Positions 1,165 to 10,420 of a stretch of DNA of 10,420 bases are shown piece after piece. The notes beneath the pieces are model-generated. The model did not search any database. It saw only the letters and a list, made by a program, of their open reading frames with translations, and was not told the origin of the DNA. Position 1 is the first letter of the stretch. Every line of letters starts with the position of its first letter. Origin of the DNA: Candidatus Methylomirabilis sp. (lineage in GTDB: Bacteria > Methylomirabilota > Methylomirabilia > Methylomirabilales > Methylomirabilaceae); contig JBGQJI010000087.1 in assembly GCA_041498975.1 (NCBI GenBank), forward strand, positions 1 through 10,420, written 5' to 3'. The position numbers were made by a program, and so were the translations under genes.

Positions 1165-1193
1165 TTGACACGCTTCGCCGTGCGAGATATAAA
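1165..1193 (+). promoter_or_regulatory. Sigma70-type promoter for the Rrf2-led operon
   Basis: TTGACA (1165-1170), 17-bp spacer, TATAAA (1188-1193). An A-rich tract lies just upstream and the Rrf2 ATG is 48 bp downstream. Confidence 0.75.
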
Positions 1194-1216
1194 ATCCGAG
1201 TAAGTCGATCGACAAT
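1192..1216. promoter_or_regulatory. Candidate Rrf2 (IscR type-1-like) operator overlapping the -10/+1 region
   Basis: AAATCCGAGTAAGTCGATCGACAAT has a 5-7-5 imperfect dyad core (CCGAG-N7-ATCGA) resembling IscR type-1 boxes. A similar core, TCGAC-N7-GTGGA, lies at 1126-1142. Confidence 0.5.
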
Positions 1217-1240: not shown

Positions 1241-1690
1241 ATGCGAGTTTCCACCAAAGGCGATTACGCAACGCGGGCGATGCAGGATCTCGCCTTCCAC
1301 TATGATCAAGGGCCGATTCAGATCGAGGACATCGCGAAGCGACAACATCTTCCCGTGCGGTATCTGGAACAGATCCTCTTGAGCCTGAAACGGGCGGGCT
1401 TCCTTGAAAGCAAGCGGGGGGTGAATGGGGGCTACTACCTCGCCAAGCATCCTCGGGAGATCACCGTCGGGGCCATCATCAGGACCATGGAGGGCCCGAT
1501 CATCCCTATCTTCTGTGTCGGCAGCGGGAAGCGGGAGATCTGTATCGAAGAGCCGCTCTGCAGCCTGCGGGATATCTGGAACGAAGTCCGCGATGCTGTG
1601 GTGAGGATTGTGGACCATACCACTCTCGAAGATCTGTGTCGGCAGATCAGAGTGAAGCGAGAACGGCAGGAGTTGACGTACCAGATCTAA
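1241..1690 (+). CDS. Rrf2-family transcriptional regulator (CymR/IscR-like)
   Basis: Motifs MRVSTKGDYATRAM, YLEQILLSLKRAGFLESKRGVNGGYYLAK and ITVGAIIRTMEGP. Cys triad C-x8-C-x5-C. AAGGA RBS upstream. Confidence 0.95.
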   Translation: MRVSTKGDYATRAMQDLAFHYDQGPIQIEDIAKRQHLPVRYLEQILLSLKRAGFLESKRGVNGGYYLAKHPREITVGAIIRTMEGPIIPIFCVGSGKREICIEEPLCSLRDIWNEVRDAVVRIVDHTTLEDLCRQIRVKRERQELTYQI

Positions 1691-1792
1691 TCCCGTTCCA
1701 ACTATTTACACCACAATGGAGGCTAGGGACAGCGAGAGTTCTTGGTAGGGCTTATGTTGGCGATTAGCCGCACTCAGTTGGAACGGGACTAG
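1687..1792. mobile_element. MITE-like element / long terminal inverted repeat pair in the rrf2-cysK intergenic region
   Basis: CTAATCCCGTTCCAACT (1687-1703) and AGTTGGAACGGGACTAG (1776-1792) are reverse complements at 16/17 positions, with a perfect 13-bp core. The 72-bp interior is non-coding. Flanks are CTAA/CTAG. Confidence 0.55.
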
Positions 1793-1822
1793 CCCTTTTA
1801 GGGGCAAAAGGTATAGAGACCG

Positions 1823-2737
1823 ATGCCACGCTTGGTTCGAAACGCGCTCGAATTGATCGGCGATACCCCATTGGTGGAGTTGCAGCGGATTCCGCGGCGA
1901 GGCTCCGCCCGTATTCTTGGAAAGCTGGAGTCTCTGAATCCAGGGGGAAGCGTCAAAGATCGGATCGCCCTGGCAATGATCGAAGAGGCGGAGCGTAACG
2001 GGCGCCTGAAGCCGGGCGACACGATCGTCGAGCCGACCTCAGGGAACACCGGGATCGGCCTTGCGATGGTGGCGGCGATCAAAGGGTACCGGTTGATCCT
2101 GACGATGCCGGAAGACATGAGCCTGGAGCGCCGGACGCTGGTCGGTCGGTTCGGGGCCGAGCTGGTGCTCACTCCAGCAATCGAAGGGATGACTGGCGCG
2201 GTCTACGCGGCCCAGTCGCTGGTGGAAAAGCATCCCGATTACTTCATGCCTCAGCAGTTCCTGAACCCGGCCAACCCCGAGATCCACCGGCTGACCACAG
2301 CCAGGGAGATCCTCAAAGCGACTCAGGGGCAGATCGATGCGTTTGTGGCCGGCGTCGGGACCGGCGGGACCATCACGGGGGTAGGCGAGGTGTTGAAGAA
2401 AGAAGTTCCCGGCGTCCAGGTGATCGCAGTGGAACCAGCCAAGTCTCCCGTCTTACAGGGAGGCAGGGCCAGGCCCCACGGGATTCAGGGAATCGGCGCC
2501 AGCTTCGTCCCGGGAGTCCTGAACAGGGAGATGCTTGACGAGATCATCGCAGTCGAGGACGAGGATGCCTATCGGATGGCCGCTCGCCTGGCCAAAGAAG
2601 AAGGCCTCCTGGTGGGAATATCGGCGGGAGGAAACGTTGTTGCCTCGACGTTGGTGGCGGAACGGCTTGGAGCCGGGAAAGTCGTGGTCACAATCCTCCC
2701 CGACACGGGCGAGCGATACCTGACCGTCCCATTCTGA
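1823..2737 (+). CDS. cysK: Cysteine synthase A (O-acetylserine sulfhydrylase)
   Basis: Motifs LIGDTPLVEL, KLESLNPGGSVKDRIA (PLP lysine), EPTSGNTGIGLA, QQFLNPANPEIH, GVGTGGT, HGIQGIGASFVP and DTGERYL. Confidence 0.95.
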   Translation: MPRLVRNALELIGDTPLVELQRIPRRGSARILGKLESLNPGGSVKDRIALAMIEEAERNGRLKPGDTIVEPTSGNTGIGLAMVAAIKGYRLILTMPEDMSLERRTLVGRFGAELVLTPAIEGMTGAVYAAQSLVEKHPDYFMPQQFLNPANPEIHRLTTAREILKATQGQIDAFVAGVGTGGTITGVGEVLKKEVPGVQVIAVEPAKSPVLQGGRARPHGIQGIGASFVPGVLNREMLDEIIAVEDEDAYRMAARLAKEEGLLVGISAGGNVVASTLVAERLGAGKVVVTILPDTGERYLTVPF

Positions 2738-2819
2738 TTCGCGCGGGAGCCAGAGCATGAACGCCTATCGTGGTCTAGATTCTTTGAGGGGAGGGGAGCC
2801 AACGGGGGGTGAGGTGTCG

Positions 2820-3905
2820 ATGGCGATCCGTGTCTATATTCCGACTCCGTATCGGAAGCTGACCCGGAATCAGCCCGTCGTCGAGGGGCATGGGGACGAT
2901 CTGGTGGAACTCCTGGACGACCTGGAGAGGCGCTTTCCGGGCATCCGCGGCCATGTGCTCGACGAGGGTGGTGAGATTCACCGCCACCTAAACGTCTACG
3001 TGAACAGTGTGGCGCTGGAGGAGCTTGGAGGCAAGCGAACGCCACTGAAGGATGGTGACGAGGTGGCGGTGATCCCGGCCATGGCGGGCGGGGCCGTGCC
3101 CTTCAATGAAGAGCAGATCCGCCGCTACAGCCGGCATATCATCCTCCCCGAGGTGGGGGGCAAAGGTCAGCGCAAACTATTGAACAGTTCGATCCTCCTG
3201 GTCGGGGCAGGCGGCCTCGGCTCCCCTGCGGCCCTGTACCTCGCCGCCGCGGGTGTCGGTCGTCTCGGCATCATCGACGCCGATGTCGTGGACATGAGCA
3301 ATTTGCAACGCCAGATCCTCCACCACGTGGATGATGTGGGACGACCGAAGGTCCAGTCTGCGGTGGATTCGATCGGCCAGATCAACCCCGACGTGAAGGT
3401 TGAGCCGTTTCAGGCGATCCTCTCCTCGGAAAACGCCAAGGACATCATCGGCCAGTACGACCTTGTGGTCAACGGCTGTGACAACTTCCCGACCCGGTAC
3501 CTGGTCAACGACGTCTGTGTCTTTCTGAAGAAGCCGCTGGTAGACGGAAGTATCTTCAAGTTCGAAGGACAGGTGACGGTTTTTGTCCCTGGTCAGGGCT
3601 GCTACCGCTGCCTGTACCCTTCCCCTCCGCCTCCCGGACTTGTCCCGAGTTGTCAGGAGGCCGGCGTCCTGGGAGTGCTGTGCGGCATCGTCGGGAGCCT
3701 GCAAGCCATCGAGGCGATCAAGCTTCTGCTCGGGATCGGCGAGTCCCTGGCCGGGCGTCTGCTCTTCGTGGATGCATTTGGGATGGAGTTCCGGCAGGTC
3801 AAGGTGCGCCGCGACCCCGACTGCCCGGTGTGCGGAGACCGTCCGACCATCACCGATCCGATCGACTACTACGAATTCTGCGGGGTGCCTGCCACGGGTC
3901 ACTGA
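2820..3905 (+). CDS. moeB: Fusion of a CysO/MoaD/ThiS-like ubiquitin-fold sulfur carrier (aa 1-91, ending AMAGG) and a MoeB/ThiF-family E1 adenylyltransferase
   Basis: GAGGTG RBS before ATG 2820. Ubl: VYIPTPYRKLT...HLNVYVN...LKDGDEVAVIPAMAGG. E1: RYSRHIILPEVG, GAGGLGSP, SNLQRQILH, DNFPTRY, CYRC, CQEAGVLG and CPVC. No stop codon between the domains and no C-terminal rhodanese domain. Confidence 0.93.
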   Translation: MAIRVYIPTPYRKLTRNQPVVEGHGDDLVELLDDLERRFPGIRGHVLDEGGEIHRHLNVYVNSVALEELGGKRTPLKDGDEVAVIPAMAGGAVPFNEEQIRRYSRHIILPEVGGKGQRKLLNSSILLVGAGGLGSPAALYLAAAGVGRLGIIDADVVDMSNLQRQILHHVDDVGRPKVQSAVDSIGQINPDVKVEPFQAILSSENAKDIIGQYDLVVNGCDNFPTRYLVNDVCVFLKKPLVDGSIFKFEGQVTVFVPGQGCYRCLYPSPPPPGLVPSCQEAGVLGVLCGIVGSLQAIEAIKLLLGIGESLAGRLLFVDAFGMEFRQVKVRRDPDCPVCGDRPTITDPIDYYEFCGVPATGH

Positions 3906-3923
3906 AGGGAAAGGAACGACGCG

Positions 3924-4940
3924 GTGCTTCGAACGGTTGTCCTCGGAATGGTCGTTGGCGTGGCCTTCGGATACGCGCTTCAACGCGGCCGCTTCTGCAT
4001 GAACTCCACATTCCGCGATATCCTGGTGGCGCGGGACCTCACACTTCTCCGCGCGTACATCCTGGCCCTCCTGATCCAGATGGTCGGGGTCAGGGCGATG
4101 TCGGCATTGGGGTGGTTTGAGTTGGGCGTCACCCCCTTTTTCTGGGAGGCTACCCTGTTGGGCGGCTTCGTGTTCGGCCTGGGCATGGCCTTCTCGGGCG
4201 GGTGAGCGAGCGGCAGCACTTACCGGTCCGGTGAGGGGATGGTGGGATCGATCATCGCGTTGCTCGGGTTTGCGTTCGGAATCACCATGACGAGCGGTGG
4301 TGTGCTCGAGCCGGTCCAGACCGCCCTCCGGAGCTGGGTGGTCGAGATCGATGGGGAGTCGGCGACCCTGGATCGGCTCTTTGGAGTGAGCCCATGGCTC
4401 CTGGTCGCGGTGAGTGTGGCGGCCGGCGGATGGTGGTTGTGGAACAGCCCGGCAGGCGGATACCAGAAGGGGTGGAGCTGGACGAGAAGTGGGATCGCGA
4501 TCGGGCTGATCGCCACGTTCGCCTGGCCCATCTCGGCGCTCACCGGCAGGGATTACGGTCTCTCGATCACCGAGGGGATCCGGACGATTTTCGGGCTCCT
4601 GTTCACAGGCGAGGTCGATCTACTGACCTGGGGCAGCTTCATGTGGCTGGGGATCATCCCCGGTGCCTACCTGGCGGCGCGGTCGCACGGGGAATTCGCT
4701 TGGCGCGCGCCCGGCGCGCAGCGCCTCCTCCAGGCCCTCGGGGGCGGTCTCCTGATGGGGGTGGGGGCCGGGATCGCCGGGGGATGCAATATCGGGCATG
4801 GCCTGACTGGGGTCCCGCTCTTTGGCTTAAGCAGCCTGACGGCCACATTCAGCATCGTCCTGGGGGTCTGGACCGGAGCATATATCCTCTTCGGGAGCGT
4901 CGCTTTTGAGCGGAGGGTCAGAAGTGTCCAACGCGCGTAG
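3924..4940 (+). CDS. yeeE: YeeE/YedE (TsuA-like) thiosulfate/sulfur-compound transporter, predicted selenoprotein (UGA 4203-4205 = Sec94; 338 aa)
   Basis: Track ORFs 3924..4205 and 4239..4940 are in the same frame. Readthrough gives FGLGMAFSGG-U-ASGSTYRSGEG, matching the family GGCASG motif. The other conserved Cys motifs, RGRFC (C25) and AGGCNIGH (C288), are intact. Multiple TM helices; SECIS-like hairpin downstream of the UGA. Confidence 0.88.
4219..4235 (+). promoter_or_regulatory. Putative bacterial SECIS element
   Basis: CTTACC-GGTCC-GGTGAG hairpin (6-7 bp stem with one G-U pair). The GGUC-containing apical loop begins about 20 nt after the in-frame UGA. Confidence 0.75.
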
Positions 4941-5835
4941 GATCGGAATCTCTTTCATCGCGACGTGTGTCGTCTGTTGGGTCGGGGCAGTTCAGCCGGC
5001 CCTTGGAACGACGGTTGGCGGCTACGCGAACCCGCAGCTTTTGATCGAGACAGAGGAGTTGGCCAAGCTGGTTGACGAGCCGGCATTGCGGATTGTAGAC
5101 CTTCGAACACCGGAAGAGTATGCCGAGGGCCATATCCCGGGCGCGGTGCATCTGCGCTGGCAGGCCCTGGATGACCTCAAGGCGAATCAGGAGGGTCTCC
5201 CGATCCCCAAGGCTCTGGCAGAGGAGCTGTTCAGCGGAGTGGGGATCGGGGACACGACGAGGGTCGTTGCGTACGATGGTCCGAAGACCCCCTTTGGCGC
5301 CACCCGCCTCTTCTTTGTCCTGGAGTTCTTCGGCCATGACAAGGTCCGGGTGTTAAACGGCGGCTTCAAGAAGTGGGCGCAGGAAGGTCGCCCGGCCTCT
5401 ACCGAGGCGCCGGCGCCGGCCAAGGCCGCCTTCGTCGCTCGACCACGCCCAGAGCTGCTGGCCACCTCGCAGGAGGTGCGCGCGAGACTCGGCGACCCGA
5501 AGGTGTGCCTCCTGGATGCTCGATCGGCGAAGGAGTACACCGGGGAGGATCTCCGGGCCATGCGGGGTGGGAGGATTCCCGGGGCGGTCAATGTGGACTA
5601 CCTCAATACCATGCGGAGTGAGGACCAGACGTTCAAGAGCGTCGAGGAGTTGCGAAAGCTCTTTGAGTCCGCAGGGGTCACGCCGGACCGGGAGACGATC
5701 ACGTACTGCCACACGGGCGCCAGGGCGGCTCACGACTACTTCGTGCTGCGACTCCTGGGATACCAGAAGCTCAAGAACTACGATGGCTCATGGGCCGAAT
5801 GGGGTAACTCCGAGGGGCTGCCGATCGAGGAGTGA
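4924..5835 (+). CDS. Two-domain rhodanese / thiosulfate sulfurtransferase (SseA/TST-like) with probable signal peptide
   Basis: GGAGG RBS then GTG 4924 (alternative start 4906). N-terminus MSNARRIGISFIATCVVCWVGAVQPALG. Motifs YAEGHIPGAV, VRVLNGG, LLDARS, GGRIPGAVN, active-site loop YCHTGARA and YDGSWAEW. Overlaps the yeeE stop by 17 nt. Confidence 0.92.
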   Translation: MSNARRIGISFIATCVVCWVGAVQPALGTTVGGYANPQLLIETEELAKLVDEPALRIVDLRTPEEYAEGHIPGAVHLRWQALDDLKANQEGLPIPKALAEELFSGVGIGDTTRVVAYDGPKTPFGATRLFFVLEFFGHDKVRVLNGGFKKWAQEGRPASTEAPAPAKAAFVARPRPELLATSQEVRARLGDPKVCLLDARSAKEYTGEDLRAMRGGRIPGAVNVDYLNTMRSEDQTFKSVEELRKLFESAGVTPDRETITYCHTGARAAHDYFVLRLLGYQKLKNYDGSWAEWGNSEGLPIEE

Positions 5836-5848
5836 TGGGGGAGAATGG

Positions 5849-6076
5849 ATGGCGCAGTATTCGCTCGACGTGACCGGGGAGATTTGCCCCTATCCTTTGA
5901 TCATGACCAGGAAAGAGTTGGGGAAGCTGCAGCCGGGTGATCAACTGGTCGTGACAGTCGATTACGCAAAATCGGCGGAGGACATCCCCAGGTGGGCGAA
6001 GGAGGATGGCCACACCGTCCTGGCGGTTCGCGAGATGGGCGGGACACAGTGGGAAATCCTGCTGGAAAAGGGGTAA
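5849..6076 (+). CDS. TusA/SirA-family sulfur carrier (YeeD/TsuB-like), CPYP motif
   Basis: ATG 5849 after GGGGAG. Sequence MAQYSLDVTGEICPYPLIMTRKELGKLQPGDQLVVTVD...DIPRWAKEDGH, 75 aa. The track's 5516 start is an over-extension. Confidence 0.92.
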   Translation: MAQYSLDVTGEICPYPLIMTRKELGKLQPGDQLVVTVDYAKSAEDIPRWAKEDGHTVLAVREMGGTQWEILLEKG

Positions 6077-6134
6077 CCCTGATCTCCTGGGGCTGGCAGG
6101 CTGGCCGGCGCCGTCTTGAGCCGGGCGAGGTGTC

Positions 6135-7106
6135 GTGATCGCGTTGAATCCGCCACGGATGGTGTTGATGGCCCTGGCGCTTCTTGCAGGAGGCGCTGCT
6201 GCACAGGCGGAGGCGGCCGGTCGCGTCTACACGGCCAACATGGAGTCCGGCACCGTCTCCGTCATCGATGCCGACGCGATGAAGGTCGTGCTCACGATCG
6301 ATGCCAGGGGACATCACACCGACGACCTTTTCTTGTCGGCTGATCAGTCCAAGCTGTTCGCGACCAACATGCACAGCGGGACCCTGGCGGTCGTGGACAC
6401 CGCTACCGATCAGGTGATCGCCACGATCCCGACGGGGAAGAAGGCTCACTCCATTGCCCTCACTCAGGATGGCAAGCACGTCTGGGTGGTCAACGGGGGA
6501 GAGGAGTATTTGACCGTTGTGGATGTTGCCTCGCTCAGGATCGTCGGACGGGTCTTTCTGGGCCAGATCCTCGGCCCGGGATATGTCCGATTTAACCCCG
6601 AGGGAACACGGGCGTATATGACGAGCCCGATCCTCGGCACTGTTTCCGTGATCGACGTGGCCTCGAAGAAGGTGATCGCGACGGTGGAGGTCGGGAAGAG
6701 TCCGACCTTCATCGCCGTGACGTCCGATGGGCGGCGAATCTGGGGCGCCGATACCGGCGGCGACGAGATTTTTGCCCTCGATGGCTCGAACAATAGCCTG
6801 CTGGGGAAGCTGACAGTAGGGAAGGCTCCGAACCATCTCGCCCTCGTTGGCGACAGCCTCTATGTGACAGTGGGAGGGACGAACGAAGTGGCGATGGTGG
6901 GCGACGTGGGCGGCCAGGTGAGCGTGAGGGGGCGGATCAAGGTCGGCGGGAGGCCCCGTGGAATCAGGCCCAGCCCGGACGGGAAGCGCCTGTATGTCAC
7001 CAGTGAAGATACGAACGATCTGCACGTGATCGACATTGCGGCACAGAGGATAGTGGGGACGGTCCCGGTGGGCAGGAGGCCCGTCGCCGTCGTGACGGCG
7101 AGATAG
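6135..7106 (+). CDS. Secreted YVTN/YncE-family seven-bladed beta-propeller protein
   Basis: GAGGTG RBS. Signal peptide ...MVLMALALLAGGAAAQAEA. Seven repeats of the type RVYTANMESGTVSVID / RLYVTSEDTNDLHVID, several linked by VGxxP-type turns. Confidence 0.9.
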   Translation: MIALNPPRMVLMALALLAGGAAAQAEAAGRVYTANMESGTVSVIDADAMKVVLTIDARGHHTDDLFLSADQSKLFATNMHSGTLAVVDTATDQVIATIPTGKKAHSIALTQDGKHVWVVNGGEEYLTVVDVASLRIVGRVFLGQILGPGYVRFNPEGTRAYMTSPILGTVSVIDVASKKVIATVEVGKSPTFIAVTSDGRRIWGADTGGDEIFALDGSNNSLLGKLTVGKAPNHLALVGDSLYVTVGGTNEVAMVGDVGGQVSVRGRIKVGGRPRGIRPSPDGKRLYVTSEDTNDLHVIDIAAQRIVGTVPVGRRPVAVVTAR

Positions 7107-7133
7107 ATCGACCGTCGCTTTGGAGGAAGTCGG

Positions 7134-7379
7134 ATGAGCGAGCGCCATCAGCAGGTGGCCGAATCCCTCGATTTGAAGGGTGAGGTCTGCCCCTACACCT
7201 TTGTCAAGAGCAAGCTGGCGCTGGAGGAGATGGAAAGCGGCCAGGTGCTGAGAGTGATCGTAGATAACCGAGGCTCGGCCGAAAACGTCCCTAGAAGCTT
7301 GACCAGTGAGGGGCACCAGATCCTGGACGTGTCACAATTGAACGAAACGGACTGGGCGATCACGGTGAAAAAGGCCTGA
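7134..7379 (+). CDS. Second TusA/SirA-family sulfur carrier, CPYT motif
   Basis: GGAGGA RBS. Sequence SLDLKGEVCPYTFVKSKLALEEMESGQVLRVIVD...ENVPRSLTSEGH, 81 aa. Confidence 0.92.
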   Translation: MSERHQQVAESLDLKGEVCPYTFVKSKLALEEMESGQVLRVIVDNRGSAENVPRSLTSEGHQILDVSQLNETDWAITVKKA

Positions 7380-7501
7380 TGCGCGCAGCGTCAGCCGTTG
7401 AATCACTCTCGGCAGCAGGCAAGATGGGGGAAGACGGAACTTCGGGCAGCCTGACGGGTTGAAGCGACCCGGGCACGGGACTGACGACAAAGGGGACATG
7501 G

Positions 7502-8437
7502 ATGAAATCAGCCGATATTCTCGATGCCATCGGTAAGACGCCGCTGGTGGAGCTTACGCGGATCAGTCCCAAGAAAGGGGTCAGGATCTTCGCCAAGATG
7601 GAGGGAAACAACCCCACCGGGAGCCTGAAGGATCGGATCGCGAAGTACATGATCGAGCAGGCTGAACGGAGCGGCGAGCTGACGAAGGACAAGACGATCT
7701 TGGAGCCGACAAGCGGCAACACCGGCATCGCCCTGGCCATGATCGGGCGAAGGAAAGGGTATAAGGTCAAGGTCGTGATCCCGGAGAACGCCACACCGGA
7801 GCGGCGCCAACTCCTGGAGATCTTCGGCGCCGAGATGATCTACTCTGATGGGACGAAAGGGAGCAACGGCGCCATCGAGCTGGCTCAGAGGCTGGTCGCC
7901 CAGGATGCATCCCTCTACATGCCATACCAGTACGGCAATCCCGCCAACCCCCTCGCCCACTATGAGACGACCGGTGTGGAGATCTTGAACGACCTGCCGG
8001 AAATCGACGTCTTCGTGGCCGGCCTTGGCACAGGCGGAACCCTGATGGGTGTGGGCCGACGGCTGAAAGAAGTCAATCCCAAGACCAAGGTCATCGCTGT
8101 CGAGCCTCATCCCGGCGATCTGGTCCAGGGGCTTCGCAGCCTGGAAGAAGGTTTCATTCCGCCCATCCTCGACACAAGCCTGCTGGACGGAAAGATCATG
8201 GTTGACTCCCGCTGCGCCTTTGCCGCCACCCGGGACCTGACCAATAAGGAAGGGATCTTCGCAGGGGTCTCCTCGGGGGCTGTGGTTCATGTCGCCATCC
8301 GGATGGCGCACCGGCTGGAGGAGGGAAACATCGTCGTCATCCTCTGTGATGGCGGATGGAAGTACGTGAGCCTTGGCGTATGGCACAAGGAGTTTCCGGA
8401 GCTCGGTGAAAATATGTACAGCCATCTCTGGTGGTAG
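7502..8437 (+). CDS. cysM: CysM-type PLP-dependent cysteine synthase (probably sulfur-carrier-dependent O-phosphoserine sulfhydrylase)
   Basis: Motifs NNPTGSLKDRIA, EPTSGNTGI, YQYGNPANPLAHYETTG, GLGTGGTLMG, GLRSLEEGFIP and DGGWKY, with C-terminal HLWW. These resemble actinobacterial CysM. Neighbours are a CysO-like carrier, an E1 and Mec. Confidence 0.88.
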   Translation: MKSADILDAIGKTPLVELTRISPKKGVRIFAKMEGNNPTGSLKDRIAKYMIEQAERSGELTKDKTILEPTSGNTGIALAMIGRRKGYKVKVVIPENATPERRQLLEIFGAEMIYSDGTKGSNGAIELAQRLVAQDASLYMPYQYGNPANPLAHYETTGVEILNDLPEIDVFVAGLGTGGTLMGVGRRLKEVNPKTKVIAVEPHPGDLVQGLRSLEEGFIPPILDTSLLDGKIMVDSRCAFAATRDLTNKEGIFAGVSSGAVVHVAIRMAHRLEEGNIVVILCDGGWKYVSLGVWHKEFPELGENMYSHLWW

Positions 8438-8438
8438 G

Positions 8439-8915
8439 ATGGACCTTACTCAGGACGCCTTGAAAGAGATCTTCGCCCACGCCGAGGAGGGCTACCCCGA
8501 CGAAGTCTGCGGGATCGTGCTCGGGAAGGGGAGCGATCCGAACACGCATCTGGTCCGCCGATGCGCCAATCTCGCGAACCAGCATCATCAGGAAGATCCG
8601 GTTCGCTTTCCCAGAGATGCCAGGACCGCGTATGTCATGGACCCTCAGGACCTTCTGCGCATCCAGCGCGAAGCCGATACCAAGGGGCTTGACTTCCTTG
8701 TCATCTATCATTCCCACACGGATCATGAGGCATACTTCTCCAAGACCGACAAAGAGCTGGCGCTGTTCGATGGGGAGCCGATGTGGCCTCATGCGCGGTA
8801 CATGGTGATTTCTGTCAAGGACCATAATGTATCTTATTATAAGGTATTTAGATGGGATTCTCTACTAAACGACTTTATAGATGAGCCGTCCTCCGTTTTG
8901 AAGGCAAGCCGGTAG
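8439..8915 (+). CDS. mec: JAMM/MPN+ (M67) metalloprotease, Mec-like CysO-cysteine peptidase
   Basis: ATG 8439 lies one base after the cysM stop. Motifs HAEEGYPDEVCG and YHSHTDHEAYFSKTD (E...HxH-x7-S-x2-D). 158 aa. Confidence 0.92.
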   Translation: MDLTQDALKEIFAHAEEGYPDEVCGIVLGKGSDPNTHLVRRCANLANQHHQEDPVRFPRDARTAYVMDPQDLLRIQREADTKGLDFLVIYHSHTDHEAYFSKTDKELALFDGEPMWPHARYMVISVKDHNVSYYKVFRWDSLLNDFIDEPSSVLKASR

Positions 8916-9012
8916 CCTCTTTTTGGCCCGCGGTTCTTGATGGTTTCAATCGACGTACTCGCACATGTAGACGTTGACGACTGACCGGAGGAATGTGCCA
9001 CCAGCGAAGGGA

Positions 9013-10420
9013 ATGGCGGTGAGCGACCCACGGTTGGACGAAACCAAGGCGCAAAGGATTGAGCGCCTGAAGAAGGAAAAGAACCCGTGGGAGTGCTTCG
9101 ACGAAATCCGCCGCTTCGCCCGAGAGGGGTTTCAAGCGATTCCGGCAGAATGGCTGGCCAGCTACCTCCGGTGGTGGGGGGTGTATACGCAGGGGGACGG
9201 GATCGGCGCGGTTGGAGGGAAGGGGGGGGAGGGAAAATCCACGCCGTACTTCATGGTGCGCATCCGCATCCCGAATGGGTTTCTGCTTGCCCATCAACTG
9301 CGTACCATTGCTGACCTTGCCGCACAGCACGCCCGCGGCGTCGCCGACCTCAGCGTCCGGCAGAACATCCAACTGCACTGGGTCACGATCGAGGACCTGC
9401 CCGAGCTTCTTGAGTCTCTCTGGAGATGCGGAATCACGACGATGGGTTCGTGCGGCGACGATACGCGGAACATCACCGGCTGCCCGCTTGCCGGTGTGGA
9501 CGGTGATGAACTCGTCGATGCCTCGCCCCTGGTCCATGCGGCGACTCGCCTGTTGAACGGGAACGCGGAGTTTTATAACCTGCCGCGCAAGTACAAGATC
9601 TGCATCAGTGGTTGCCGCGCCTGGTGTGCCTACCCCGAGATCAATGACATCGGAATGACCGCCGTCGGGCATCCGAAGTCCGGCGAGATCGGGTTCTCAG
9701 TGCGGGTCGGCGGGGGACTTTCCACGCAGCCTCACCTGGGCGTTCGGCTGAATGTCTTTGTGCGCTGGGACCAGGTGCTGCCGGTCGTGAAAGGTATCAC
9801 GGAAACCTTCCGCGATTCAGACATCTTGCGCCAGGATAGGGAAAAGGCGCGGATGAAATTCCTGTTCCTCACCCATGGGTGGACCGCCGAACGATTTCAG
9901 AAGGAGGTGGAACGCCGCACCGGCTTTTTCCTCGACCCGGCCGTGCCGGAAGAGCCGCCGGACGATGTCTACCGCGACCACGTCGGCGTTCACCCGCAGA
10001 AGCAGCACGGGTATTACTATGCGGGCGTTCCCGTCCTTCGCGGGCGGATGACCGCCGAGCAGATGCAGGGGATGGCGGGTCTTGCCGATCGCTATGGCAG
10101 CGGCGAGCTGCGCATCACCGTTATGCAGAACCTGGTGATCCCGAACATCCGGCAGTCGCACATACAGGCGCTCAAAGAGGAGATCAACCAGACAGGTCTG
10201 CGACTCGAGGCGTCACCCTTCTGGCGAGGCACGATCGCCTGCACGGGGACGGAATTCTGCAAGCTCGCCTTGACGGAGACCAAAGGGTTTGCCGGATGGC
10301 TGGTGGAAGAGCTCGAGCGACGGATGCCGGGCTTCGACCAGCACGTCAAGATCCACGTCACCGGCTGTCCGAATAGCTGCGGGCAGCAGTGGATCGCCGA
10401 CATCGGGATCGAGGGGAAGA
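9013..10420 (+). CDS. Ferredoxin-dependent sulfite/nitrite reductase (siroheme-[4Fe-4S] hemoprotein, Sir/NirA family), 3'-truncated
   Basis: Missing from the ORF track because it runs off the window. Frame reads LRWWGVYTQ, FMVRIRIPNG, RQNIQLHW, SCGDDTRNITGCP, NLPRKYK, IACTGTEFCKLA and HVTGCPNSCGQ. Start is uncertain (GTG 8995, ATG 9013 or GTG 9019). Sulfite specificity is inferred from context. Confidence 0.93.
   Translation, partial: MAVSDPRLDETKAQRIERLKKEKNPWECFDEIRRFAREGFQAIPAEWLASYLRWWGVYTQGDGIGAVGGKGGEGKSTPYFMVRIRIPNGFLLAHQLRTIADLAAQHARGVADLSVRQNIQLHWVTIEDLPELLESLWRCGITTMGSCGDDTRNITGCPLAGVDGDELVDASPLVHAATRLLNGNAEFYNLPRKYKICISGCRAWCAYPEINDIGMTAVGHPKSGEIGFSVRVGGGLSTQPHLGVRLNVFVRWDQVLPVVKGITETFRDSDILRQDREKARMKFLFLTHGWTAERFQKEVERRTGFFLDPAVPEEPPDDVYRDHVGVHPQKQHGYYYAGVPVLRGRMTAEQMQGMAGLADRYGSGELRITVMQNLVIPNIRQSHIQALKEEINQTGLRLEASPFWRGTIACTGTEFCKLALTETKGFAGWLVEELERRMPGFDQHVKIHVTGCPNSCGQQWIADIGIEGK

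Follow-up and report, generated by a model that had tools for sequence, protein, structure and literature searches.

The window analysed here is a stretch of 10,420 bp (GenBank accession JBGQJI010000087.1) which represents the whole of contig C87 in the genome of a Candidatus Methylomirabilis sp. (G000; 2.68 Mb, 84.9% complete), and it is the front half of a general Methylomirabilis sulfur-assimilation cluster. At the centre of this cluster lies a gene encoding a ubiquitin-like (Ubl) domain fused to an E1-type activating enzyme. We consider it probable that this Ubl-fused E1 takes sulfur from TusA2, the second of two TusA proteins encoded in the window, and charges all of the Gly-Gly carriers of the cell after the JAMM protease Mec has freed their C-termini. 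Eleven genes, all on the + strand, run from position 1241 to the end of the window in the order rrf2, cysK, Ubl-E1, yeeE, rhodanese, tusA1, beta-propeller, tusA2, cysM, mec and sir1. This co-oriented arrangement with overlaps or short gaps, which had been described in an initial annotation made from the sequence, was confirmed, the intergenic distances from rrf2 to sir1 being 132, 82, 18, -17, 13, 58, 27, 122, 1, and 97 nt.

The initial annotation had presented the 11 genes as a single operon. Overlapping contigs show that the window is only the front of the cluster. C87 breaks inside sir1 and its last 28 nt are identical to the start of contig C210, which completes sir1 and adds tauE and a second reductase gene, sir2; C210 in turn overlaps contig C221 by 289 nt at 98.6% identity, where the remainder of sir2 is found along with another propeller gene, cysH and sat. 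It is this continuation into tauE, sir2, cysH and sat which identifies the locus as a general sulfur-assimilation cluster. In the closed genome of a relative (locus L051) the whole run is contiguous and is followed by two NIL proteins, a ThrC-like pyridoxal phosphate (PLP) enzyme and a free Ubl, a block which in G000 is found on the separate contig C50 (L168:5700-8029; L051:17462-19811). Since four ThrC-like matches are present in G000, the thrC-like enzyme beside the free Ubl may be a carrier-dependent sulfhydrylase, for instance for homocysteine, instead of a threonine synthase.

The Ubl-E1 fusion, the Mec protease and the carriers of the cell

The fusion is a single protein of 361 aa, in which a CysO-fold Ubl domain (2820..3092, + strand; PF02597) ending in an internal Gly90-Gly91 is joined to a ThiF/MoeB-type E1 (3093..3905, + strand; PF00899 at 292 bits) with a conserved C278 and no rhodanese domain. 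Pfam detects the ThiS and ThiF domains only; the MoeZ model reaches 372 bits against a cut-off of 647, and the fused rhodanese domain of MoeZ was not encountered. Of the Ubl/E1 gene proposed previously both halves are thus present, but as one protein lacking the rhodanese, and not as a free CysO plus a MoeZ. The best PDB matches of the Ubl domain are 4n6e_B and 3dwg_C. A fold search with the single-chain model of the fusion returned only ThiF/MoeB/Uba4-type E1 enzymes and did not place the Ubl, and the confidence of the model is low at residues 89-91. An upstream in-frame ATG (2757-2819) would add an N-terminal extension of 21 residues, which is open in many same-genus copies (382-aa calls).

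Apart from this E1, no full-length enzyme of the MoeB/ThiF class was found in G000. Among 19 same-genus genomes PF00899 gave exactly one match in 11, the closed one included, and in the remaining eight there was one with a second copy of the locus, one without any match (67% complete) and six with extra partial matches; these extra matches, in the six genomes and in G000, are partial and score at most 109 bits, compared to about 290 for the Ubl-fused E1. The mec gene (8439..8915, + strand) encodes a JAMM/JAB metalloprotease (PF14464 at 82 bits) with an intact E22 and HxH-x7-S-x2-D motif, preserved in relatives, and in five of five genomes Mec scores 82-92 bits with every other JAB match at 34 bits or less. 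In the same five genomes MoaD, encoded beside moaE, ends three residues after its Gly-Gly and ThiS, encoded beside thiG, ends two residues after it. JAMM proteases are described to cut linear Ubl fusions such as MoaD-MoaE (PMC8832034), and since a carrier needs a free C-terminus Mec is likely to free such carriers. With a sole full-length E1, a sole strong JAB match, and tailed MoaD and ThiS, it is likely that E1 and Mec serve the whole cell, i.e., the synthesis of molybdenum cofactor (Moco) and thiamine as well as that of cysteine. A precedent is the mycobacterial MoeZR, reported to serve both CysO and MoaD (PMC3227635).

The Gly-Gly junction within the fusion is highly conserved. Using a strict pattern, the PA-x-x-GG end of the Ubl was present in 117 of 120 fusion homologues, G90 and G91 were invariant in 82 of 82 aligned fusions (81 homologues plus the window protein) and so was C278 of the E1. 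A Gly-Gly junction of this kind also connects Ubl with CysM in a sister family, and Ubl with TusA2 elsewhere. Both observations argue against an alternative in which the fused Ubl is never cut and acts as a structural or regulatory domain of the E1, with only the free carriers being charged; we judge this alternative unlikely, although it is compatible with an E1 serving all free carriers. It draws on the suggestion that Ubl domains fused to ThiF differ in role from free ThiS (Iyer et al., 2006; PMC1779556), and on the divergence of the fused Ubl from CysO. Three CysO-type paralogue classes exist in the order, one E1-fused, one CysM-linked and one thrC-linked, and they match 3dwg_C with 58 bits for the fused Ubl and 79 and 86 bits for the other two. 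The EDxRF motif of CysO is absent from the fused Ubl in 112 of 112 parsed homologues and retained in the thrC-linked free Ubl. The CysM-linked Ubl is missing from the loci of this genus, while five other-family relatives keep it as a separate protein, together with the thrC-linked Ubl where the loci reach that far. A CysO-like free Ubl with a terminal Gly-Gly does not occur in the window; one is located on C50. The equation of the fused Ubl with CysO, as put forward in the initial annotation, is not supported in view of the missing EDxRF, and the thrC-linked Ubl which kept the motif would be the likelier carrier for CysM.

Two further observations concern the fusion and its relatives. The Ubl-CysM fusions of the sister family (L060:5004-6218; L062:4070-5374; L065; L082), with their internal Gly-Gly intact, represent another polyprotein built on this plan. 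In five genomes of one family (G027:C112:5677-6378; G034:C43; G037:C237; G040:C378; G023:C213) the full-length E1 gene contains a single in-frame TGA and possibly encodes an E1 with selenocysteine (Sec).

TusA2, the sulfite reductases and the supply of sulfur

The predicted sulfur donor to the E1 is TusA2 (7134..7379, + strand), a protein of the CPYTF type. Longer relatives, eight among 53 TusA2 candidates, are fused to ThiS (n = 3), JAB (n = 2), PALP, Sat, and a thioredoxin-like domain (n = 1 each), and the 22 proteins of at least 140 aa among the best 150 representatives include six Sir-TusA fusions and two more JAB-TusA fusions. Four of the six Sir-TusA fusions carry GxGECAG and one also contains a JAB domain. 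Structure prediction of the E1 dimer with TusA2 scored 0.79, compared to 0.00 for the best of three controls; this score was attained by 116 of the 157 solved pairs and by 2 of the 215 mismatched ones, figures which apply only approximately to the present case. At least 96% of contacts were shared between runs, and the pLDDT (a per-residue model confidence) of the partner was at least 86. In the model the TusA2 side of the interface, formed by C19-Y21 and the helix after it, comprises C19-Y21, F23-K25, and residues 27, 28, 31, 32, 51, 55, and 59, and the E1 side residues 92-115 plus 160 and 279-280 of the other copy, adjoining C278, so that TusA2 is predicted to dock beside C278. The hand-over from TusA to E1 assumed in the initial annotation gains support from this predicted complex, as does the proposal that SirA/TusA replaces the missing rhodanese of such an E1 (Iyer et al., 2006; PMC1779556), a guess on the sulfur source of rhodanese-less E1 enzymes which now has a specific predicted interface. 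None of the nine TusA-family PDB sequences found names an E1 together with TusA.

Sulfur could reach TusA2 from the second reductase. Its gene (L020:1599-3275 on C210 and L167:2-439 on C221) encodes a protein ending in GPGECAA; a GxGEC terminus is present in 117 of 120 Sir2 homologues, and in the structure model the tail is disordered. It is possible that this tail works as a swinging persulfide arm. A literature search on a C-terminal cysteine of Sir together with TusA gave only a Dsr-predictor paper among the matches listed. Zero-valent sulfur has been reported as the direct product of assimilatory sulfite reductases in 2026 (PMC13188885), and a product of this kind would suit a protein-bound hand-over.

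The first reductase, Sir1 (9013..10420, + strand, cut by the contig end), is of the ferredoxin type with 1zj8 as its best PDB match (281 bits). Its active-site set consists of R83, R116, K193, and K195 with the motif LPRKYK, while the third Nir/Sir of G000 has LPRKFN, with Asn at the last position as in the aligned plant nitrite reductase; Asn at this position marks nitrite enzymes. The Arg-Arg-Lys-Lys set is described as conserved in sulfite reductases (PMC10229431). The assignment of Sir1 as a sulfite-type reductase, which agrees with the initial annotation, is supported by these residues. A literature search on the Lys/Asn diagnostic returned no paper with "N226K" among the matches listed.

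Two cysteine synthases accompany these genes. CysK (1823..2737, + strand) is an O-acetylserine sulfhydrylase A passing its equivalog cut-off (TIGR01139, 435 bits against 351), and cysE is found elsewhere in G000 and above cut-off in five of five genomes. CysM (7502..8437, + strand) is of the mycobacterial carrier-dependent type, with 3dwg_A as best PDB match at 292 bits and the next family at 244. Its R212 aligns to R220 of mycobacterial CysM and a C-terminal LW tail is present; an R220 equivalent and a C-terminal extension are features of a carrier-dependent CysM, for which O-phosphoserine and a carrier thiocarboxylate would be the substrates. The pairing of such a CysM with an intact JAMM protease, and the presence of CysK, had both been recognised correctly beforehand.

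Taken together, sulfate would be converted by Sat and CysH to sulfite, which Sir1 or Sir2 would then reduce. What enters via the Sec-containing YeeE and passes to TusA1 would be either thiosulfate or sulfane sulfur which the exported rhodanese has derived from it. Free sulfide and O-acetylserine would be used by CysK, and either the flexible C-terminal cysteine of Sir2 (GxGECA) or TusA1 would load TusA2, from which sulfur would move to C278 of the E1 and end up as the thiocarboxylate of a carrier. The carrier used by CysM would be of the CysO type, the free thrC-linked Ubl being a likelier candidate than the fused Ubl, and Mec would release cysteine; the same E1 and Mec would also serve MoaD for Moco and ThiS for thiamine.

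The initial annotation had proposed a dedicated thiosulfate operon, in which TusA would be the only path of the sulfane atom, towards the fused Ubl and CysM, and Sir the only path of the sulfite atom, towards CysK. Every part needed for this is present and linked, YeeD is reported to split thiosulfate into sulfite and persulfide (PMC11073785), and TusA2 is predicted to dock on the E1. We nevertheless regard it as improbable. The same cluster runs into sat and cysH, and an sbp-cysTWA locus is present elsewhere in G000 behind a second rrf2 (C44; L165:4147-8724), so that the sulfite used by Sir need not derive from thiosulfate. TusA2-type domains fused in other organisms to a second-type Sir, to Ubl, and to JAB speak against a Sir that feeds only CysK; the fused Ubl is the least CysO-like of the three classes; and the E1 is also the only one available to MoaD and ThiS. 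A clean split of the two thiosulfate atoms may still occur; none of the observations requires one, and the Sir-TusA fusions speak against it. It should be noted that sbp was above cut-off only in G000 and in none of four near-complete relatives, and that no SulP was above cut-off in the five genomes; that TauE imports sulfate in the relatives is a guess.

A bolder version of the reading we favour is a protease-gated hub for all protein-carried sulfur. The Ubl-E1 polyprotein and the tailed MoaD, ThiS and CysO would be inactive until cut by Mec, and the CPxTF TusA would be the detached equivalent of the MoeZ/Uba4 rhodanese, docking just after the fusion junction, on the first helix of the E1, so as to bring its cysteine close to C278. 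Its sulfur would come from a DsrC-like swinging cysteine tail of Sir and, via TusA1, from a Sec-gated covalent YeeE, so that neither free sulfide nor a cysteine desulfurase would stand between sulfite or thiosulfate and cysteine, thiamine and Moco. In this complete form the proposal appears doubtful.

Several points weigh against a Ubl-fused E1 supplied by TusA2 and serving all carriers. Cleavage of the fusion by Mec is deduced from conservation only, and a difference in role between Ubl-ThiF fusions and free ThiS has been suggested, as mentioned above. No E1-TusA fusion was found among the 53 TusA2 candidates or among the long proteins of the best 150 representatives. Close cousins can pass the docking method. 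TusA2 could also receive its sulfur from a cysteine desulfurase, with no Sir involved. Sir1 is nearly tied between 1zj8 and plant nitrite reductase (281 and 277 bits). G000 is only 84.9% complete. In one RNA run 9% of the window words were present, in contigs with a depth of about 3-8 which were mostly less than 95% alike and belong to a relative. Some of them extend from one gene into the next, which in assembled sequence is no proof of a transcript, and the library may have contained DNA.

The probable selenocysteine YeeE and the linked sulfur-handling genes

The yeeE/tsuA gene (3924..4940, + strand) has an in-frame TGA at 4203-4205 and is predicted to encode a selenoprotein. Read-through gives a product of 338 aa in which PF04143 is matched over 1-310/310 at 265 bits, and the three channel positions C25, U94, and C288 align to C22, C91, and C293 of Spirochaeta thermophila YeeE. 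Of 30 yeeE orthologues in the order 21 have TGA and nine a Cys codon (TGY) at position 94; since all 12 copies outside the genus have TGA, Sec is likely to be ancestral. Genes for the Sec machinery (selA, selB, selD, and the tRNA-Sec gene selC) are all present in G000, and selA in 19 of 19 same-genus genomes. It is very likely that the UGA is read as Sec, as already suggested by the initial annotation; neither an assembly error nor a premature stop at 4203 would account for a TGA which 21 of 30 orthologues share at that codon, and both were rejected.

Downstream of the TGA lies a candidate Sec insertion sequence (SECIS) hairpin (Sec codon plus hairpin 4203..4235, + strand; stem 4219-4224 with 4230-4235, loop GGTCC). 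This 6-bp stem, 13 nt 3' of the TGA, is intact in 16 of 21 TGA copies (nine of nine within the genus), in none of the nine Cys copies within the genus and in two of 55 distant Cys copies, counts which come from related copies and represent a pattern and not a statistical test. The stem needs rare synonymous codons, namely ACT (9% of Thr codons) and GGT (15% of Gly codons). The folding energy downstream of the UGA is unremarkable (z -0.3 to -1.0), so that the case for the hairpin rests on codon-level conservation, and the hairpin after the UGA of selD in G000 looks different, with no shared pattern.

Downstream of yeeE, and overlapping it, is a two-domain rhodanese gene (4924..5835, + strand; PF00581 twice; best PDB match 1uar) with the active-site loop CHTGAR (C262) and a signal-peptide-like N-terminus. 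The hydrophobic N-terminal stretch is present in seven of seven exported-type rhodanese rows and absent in three cytoplasmic paralogues, and the protein is therefore likely to be exported. It is followed by tusA1 (5849..6076, + strand; CPxP type; best match NF041048, below cut-off), and by a YVTN/YncE-type beta-propeller gene (6135..7106, + strand; TIGR02276, PF21783; N-terminal leader) which is lost together with the rhodanese. A CPxP-type TusA next to yeeE in most of 80 loci, extending far outside the order, makes TusA1 the likely YeeD partner of YeeE, and the earlier assignment of a thiosulfate-type YeeE with a YeeD-like TusA agrees with the three channel positions and the CPxP motif. For YeeD the persulfide acceptor was left open (PMC11073785), and the cluster offers a testable answer on this question. 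In some relatives a DsrE/DsrF/DsrH (TusBCD-like) trio is located immediately 5' of yeeE (L061:6010-6990; L060:8900-9943), and contig C136 of G000 carries a further YeeE/YedE-like gene pair and, after it, one more rhodanese gene whose product begins with a signal-peptide-like stretch (L166:24-2295).

What YeeE passes was considered under two alternatives. In the first YeeE would not carry intact thiosulfate but periplasmic sulfane sulfur or polysulfide made by the rhodanese and relayed covalently via Sec, a possibility compatible with the proposed role of the E1 but which we judge unlikely. U94 sits at the essential middle cysteine (C91 in S. thermophila), which has been modelled as a hydrogen-bond partner (PMC7449682). 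The rhodanese gene adjoins yeeE in 12 of 12 other-family Sec loci, the six same-genus relatives outside the loss clade described below have a rhodanese orthologue and all have Sec, 10 of 13 genomes that lost the rhodanese have Cys, and SoxT1A of the same family is reported not to carry thiosulfate (PMC11582611). The loss of the rhodanese is, however, a single event on the tree (100/100), which means that the correlation is not independent; two of the 13 genomes keep Sec without this rhodanese, although they have another rhodanese paralogue, and thiosulfate is the substrate of the closest relative with a solved structure. Naturally occurring Sec and Cys versions of YeeE, 80-84% identical within the genus, bear on the choice between a hydrogen-bond and a covalent mechanism.

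In the second alternative the YeeE-TusA module would handle selenium in a YedE/YedF-like manner, or the reductase would serve nitrite assimilation. In its favour are the use of Sec by the genome, low-scoring matches to the YedE and YedF models for selenium, and the NCBIfam comparison, in which Sir1 came closest to a model for nitrite reductase without reaching the cut-off. The TsuA models score 252 and 212 bits, below their equivalog cut-offs of 400 and 645, but well above the 100 and 40 bits for the selenium YedE models; selA, selB, and selD are on other contigs; and both reductases of the cluster have Lys-x-Lys while the plant-like LPRKFN is confined to the third copy of the genome. We thus consider this alternative very improbable. 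Import for sulfur oxidation (a SoxT-like use) found no support, with no soxB match in the five genomes.

Layout, regulation and comparison with known systems

The 11 genes may form one co-transcribed unit. No terminator-like site was found on the + strand of the window, the three detected sites all being on the - strand, and no Rfam family was found at E up to 1. The core order is conserved in the genus while the exact 11-gene form is not: it was seen whole in only one of 19 same-genus genomes (L057), with 10 of the 11 genes in L078. The genes cysK, Ubl-E1 and yeeE are adjacent in 18 of the 19, the contig of the 19th beginning within yeeE, and tusA1 to tusA2-cysM-mec is retained in 14 of 14 same-genus contigs reaching mec. 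An orthologue of the exported rhodanese is found in only six of the 19 genomes. Among the 13 without it 12 have a contig running past yeeE, all 12 of which also lack the propeller there, and sir1 is missing too where contigs reach. On an independent marker tree, which left out G012 and G003, the rhodanese-free genomes form one clade (support 100/100, 11 rows).

A sigma70-like promoter, TTGACA-17 nt-TATAAA (1165..1193, + strand), was read from the sequence upstream of rrf2, and CTTGACA is nearly invariant across 17 aligned upstream regions; an automated scan omitted it as its rule demands T at the last position. Just 3' of the -10 box is a conserved block (1196..1216, + strand) with the palindrome GTCGATCGAC at 1204-1213. 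This block is a candidate Rrf2 operator, is common to the rrf2 upstream regions of relatives and to the rrf2 of the sbp-cysTWA locus, and presumably resembles IscR type-1 sites. The regulator itself (1241..1690, + strand; PF02082) is CymR/IscR-like, with 117 bits for the CymR model (equivalog cut-off of 195 not reached) and 99 for IscR (cut-off 208), and combines three IscR-like cysteines (C92, C101, and C107) with a CymR-like Ile end; the C-terminal Tyr-x-Ile is present in 16 of 16 Rrf2 rows. The protein is likely to be the repressor of the cluster, acting at the promoter 1165-1193. The sbp-cysTWA rrf2 has a similar promoter, operator-like block and Y-x-I end.

The largest gap, between rrf2 and cysK, is occupied by a dispersed 106-nt repeat (1687..1792) outside the pathway, resembling a miniature inverted-repeat transposable element (MITE) with 17-nt terminal inverted repeats (arms 1687-1703 and 1776-1792). 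It has 30 hits in the genome, 23 of them of at least 70 nt, is absent from most relatives, where the spacer is only about 35 nt, and folds as a long hairpin between the two genes. Unrelated to the cluster, positions 1-658 of the window contain a bactofilin fragment and a small zinc-ribbon/FxLYD-like open reading frame, in the same order in L057.

The novelty claimed by the initial annotation does not stand, since the cluster class is described by Iyer et al. (2006; PMC1779556) and Sec-YeeE is listed in the tables of two reviews (PMC13188914, PMC9312934). A literature search pairing Methylomirabilis with these genes gave no mention of the genus among the matches listed, and subscription papers and supplements may describe the fusion or the cluster. 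The type-4e operons of Iyer et al. comprise Ubl, JAB, a rhodanese-less E1, SirA/TusA, 3'-phosphoadenosine or adenosine 5'-phosphosulfate ((P)APS) reductase, ATP sulfurylase and sulfite reductase; sulfur was predicted to pass from sulfate or sulfite to the carrier, and Ubl-ThiF fusions were noted. Here Ubl, JAB, a rhodanese-less E1 and SirA/TusA (two PF01206 genes) are all present and sulfite reductase, cysH and sat are linked through the C87-C210-C221 overlaps and contiguous in L051, whereas O-acetylhomoserine sulfhydrylase, APS kinase and an ATP-binding cassette (ABC) transporter are not among the open reading frames annotated in L051. In place of O-acetylhomoserine sulfhydrylase the cluster has CysK and a CysM of mycobacterial type as terminal enzymes; it further differs by the fusion of Ubl with E1, by two types of TusA and by an inserted Sec-YeeE module. 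As further listed members were not encountered, the cluster is a variant of type-4e and not a type example.

With the YeeE-YeeD (TsuAB) system of E. coli and S. thermophila (PMC7449682, PMC11073785; PDB 6leo, 8j4c) the module shares a full-length transporter, the three channel positions and an adjacent CPxP TusA; here the middle cysteine is Sec, the module is accompanied by genes for an exported rhodanese and a propeller, and it lies within a carrier-protein cluster. Among predicted selenoprotein families the Sec YeeE/YedE thiosulfate transporter, with its GUxSG motif, has been listed before (PMC13188914, PMC9312934), and the same Pfam family and a GUASG motif are found here with no difference in kind, the addition being a new lineage record in which loss of the hairpin tracks the change to Cys. 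The mycobacterial CysO/CysM/Mec+/MoeZR route (PMC3227635; PDB 3dwg) provides the closest solved relative of CysM and has an intact JAMM protease in common with the cluster, and the E1 shared between CysO and MoaD which was reported for MoeZR has its counterpart in the shared E1 proposed here. This E1 differs in lacking the rhodanese domain and in its N-terminal Ubl, and there is no free CysO beside cysM in the genus, while in other families CysO is free or CysM-fused.

A carrier-dependent homocysteine route of Wolinella succinogenes, with Sir, HcyD and HcyF, reportedly also uses a rhodanese-less E1 and a carrier-trimming JAMM protease. It leads to homocysteine via MetY (PMC8191291), in place of the CysM and ThrC-like enzyme found here. 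Both in MoaD-MoaE fusions (PMC8832034) and in this cluster a Ubl is fused through its Gly-Gly end and must be freed, but in the present case it is the activating enzyme to which the Ubl is joined. If the proposed role is true, Moco and thiamine synthesis of nitrite-dependent methane oxidisers would hang on one cluster E1 and one protease. New here are the Ubl-E1 fusion with invariant Gly-Gly as the sole full-length E1, and the tailed MoaD and ThiS. The value of the system lies in the predicted E1-TusA2 interface, the proposed hub of a single E1 and a single protease, and the Sec/Cys YeeE pair; with its parts and cluster type already known, the system refines existing biology and is not a new kind of system.

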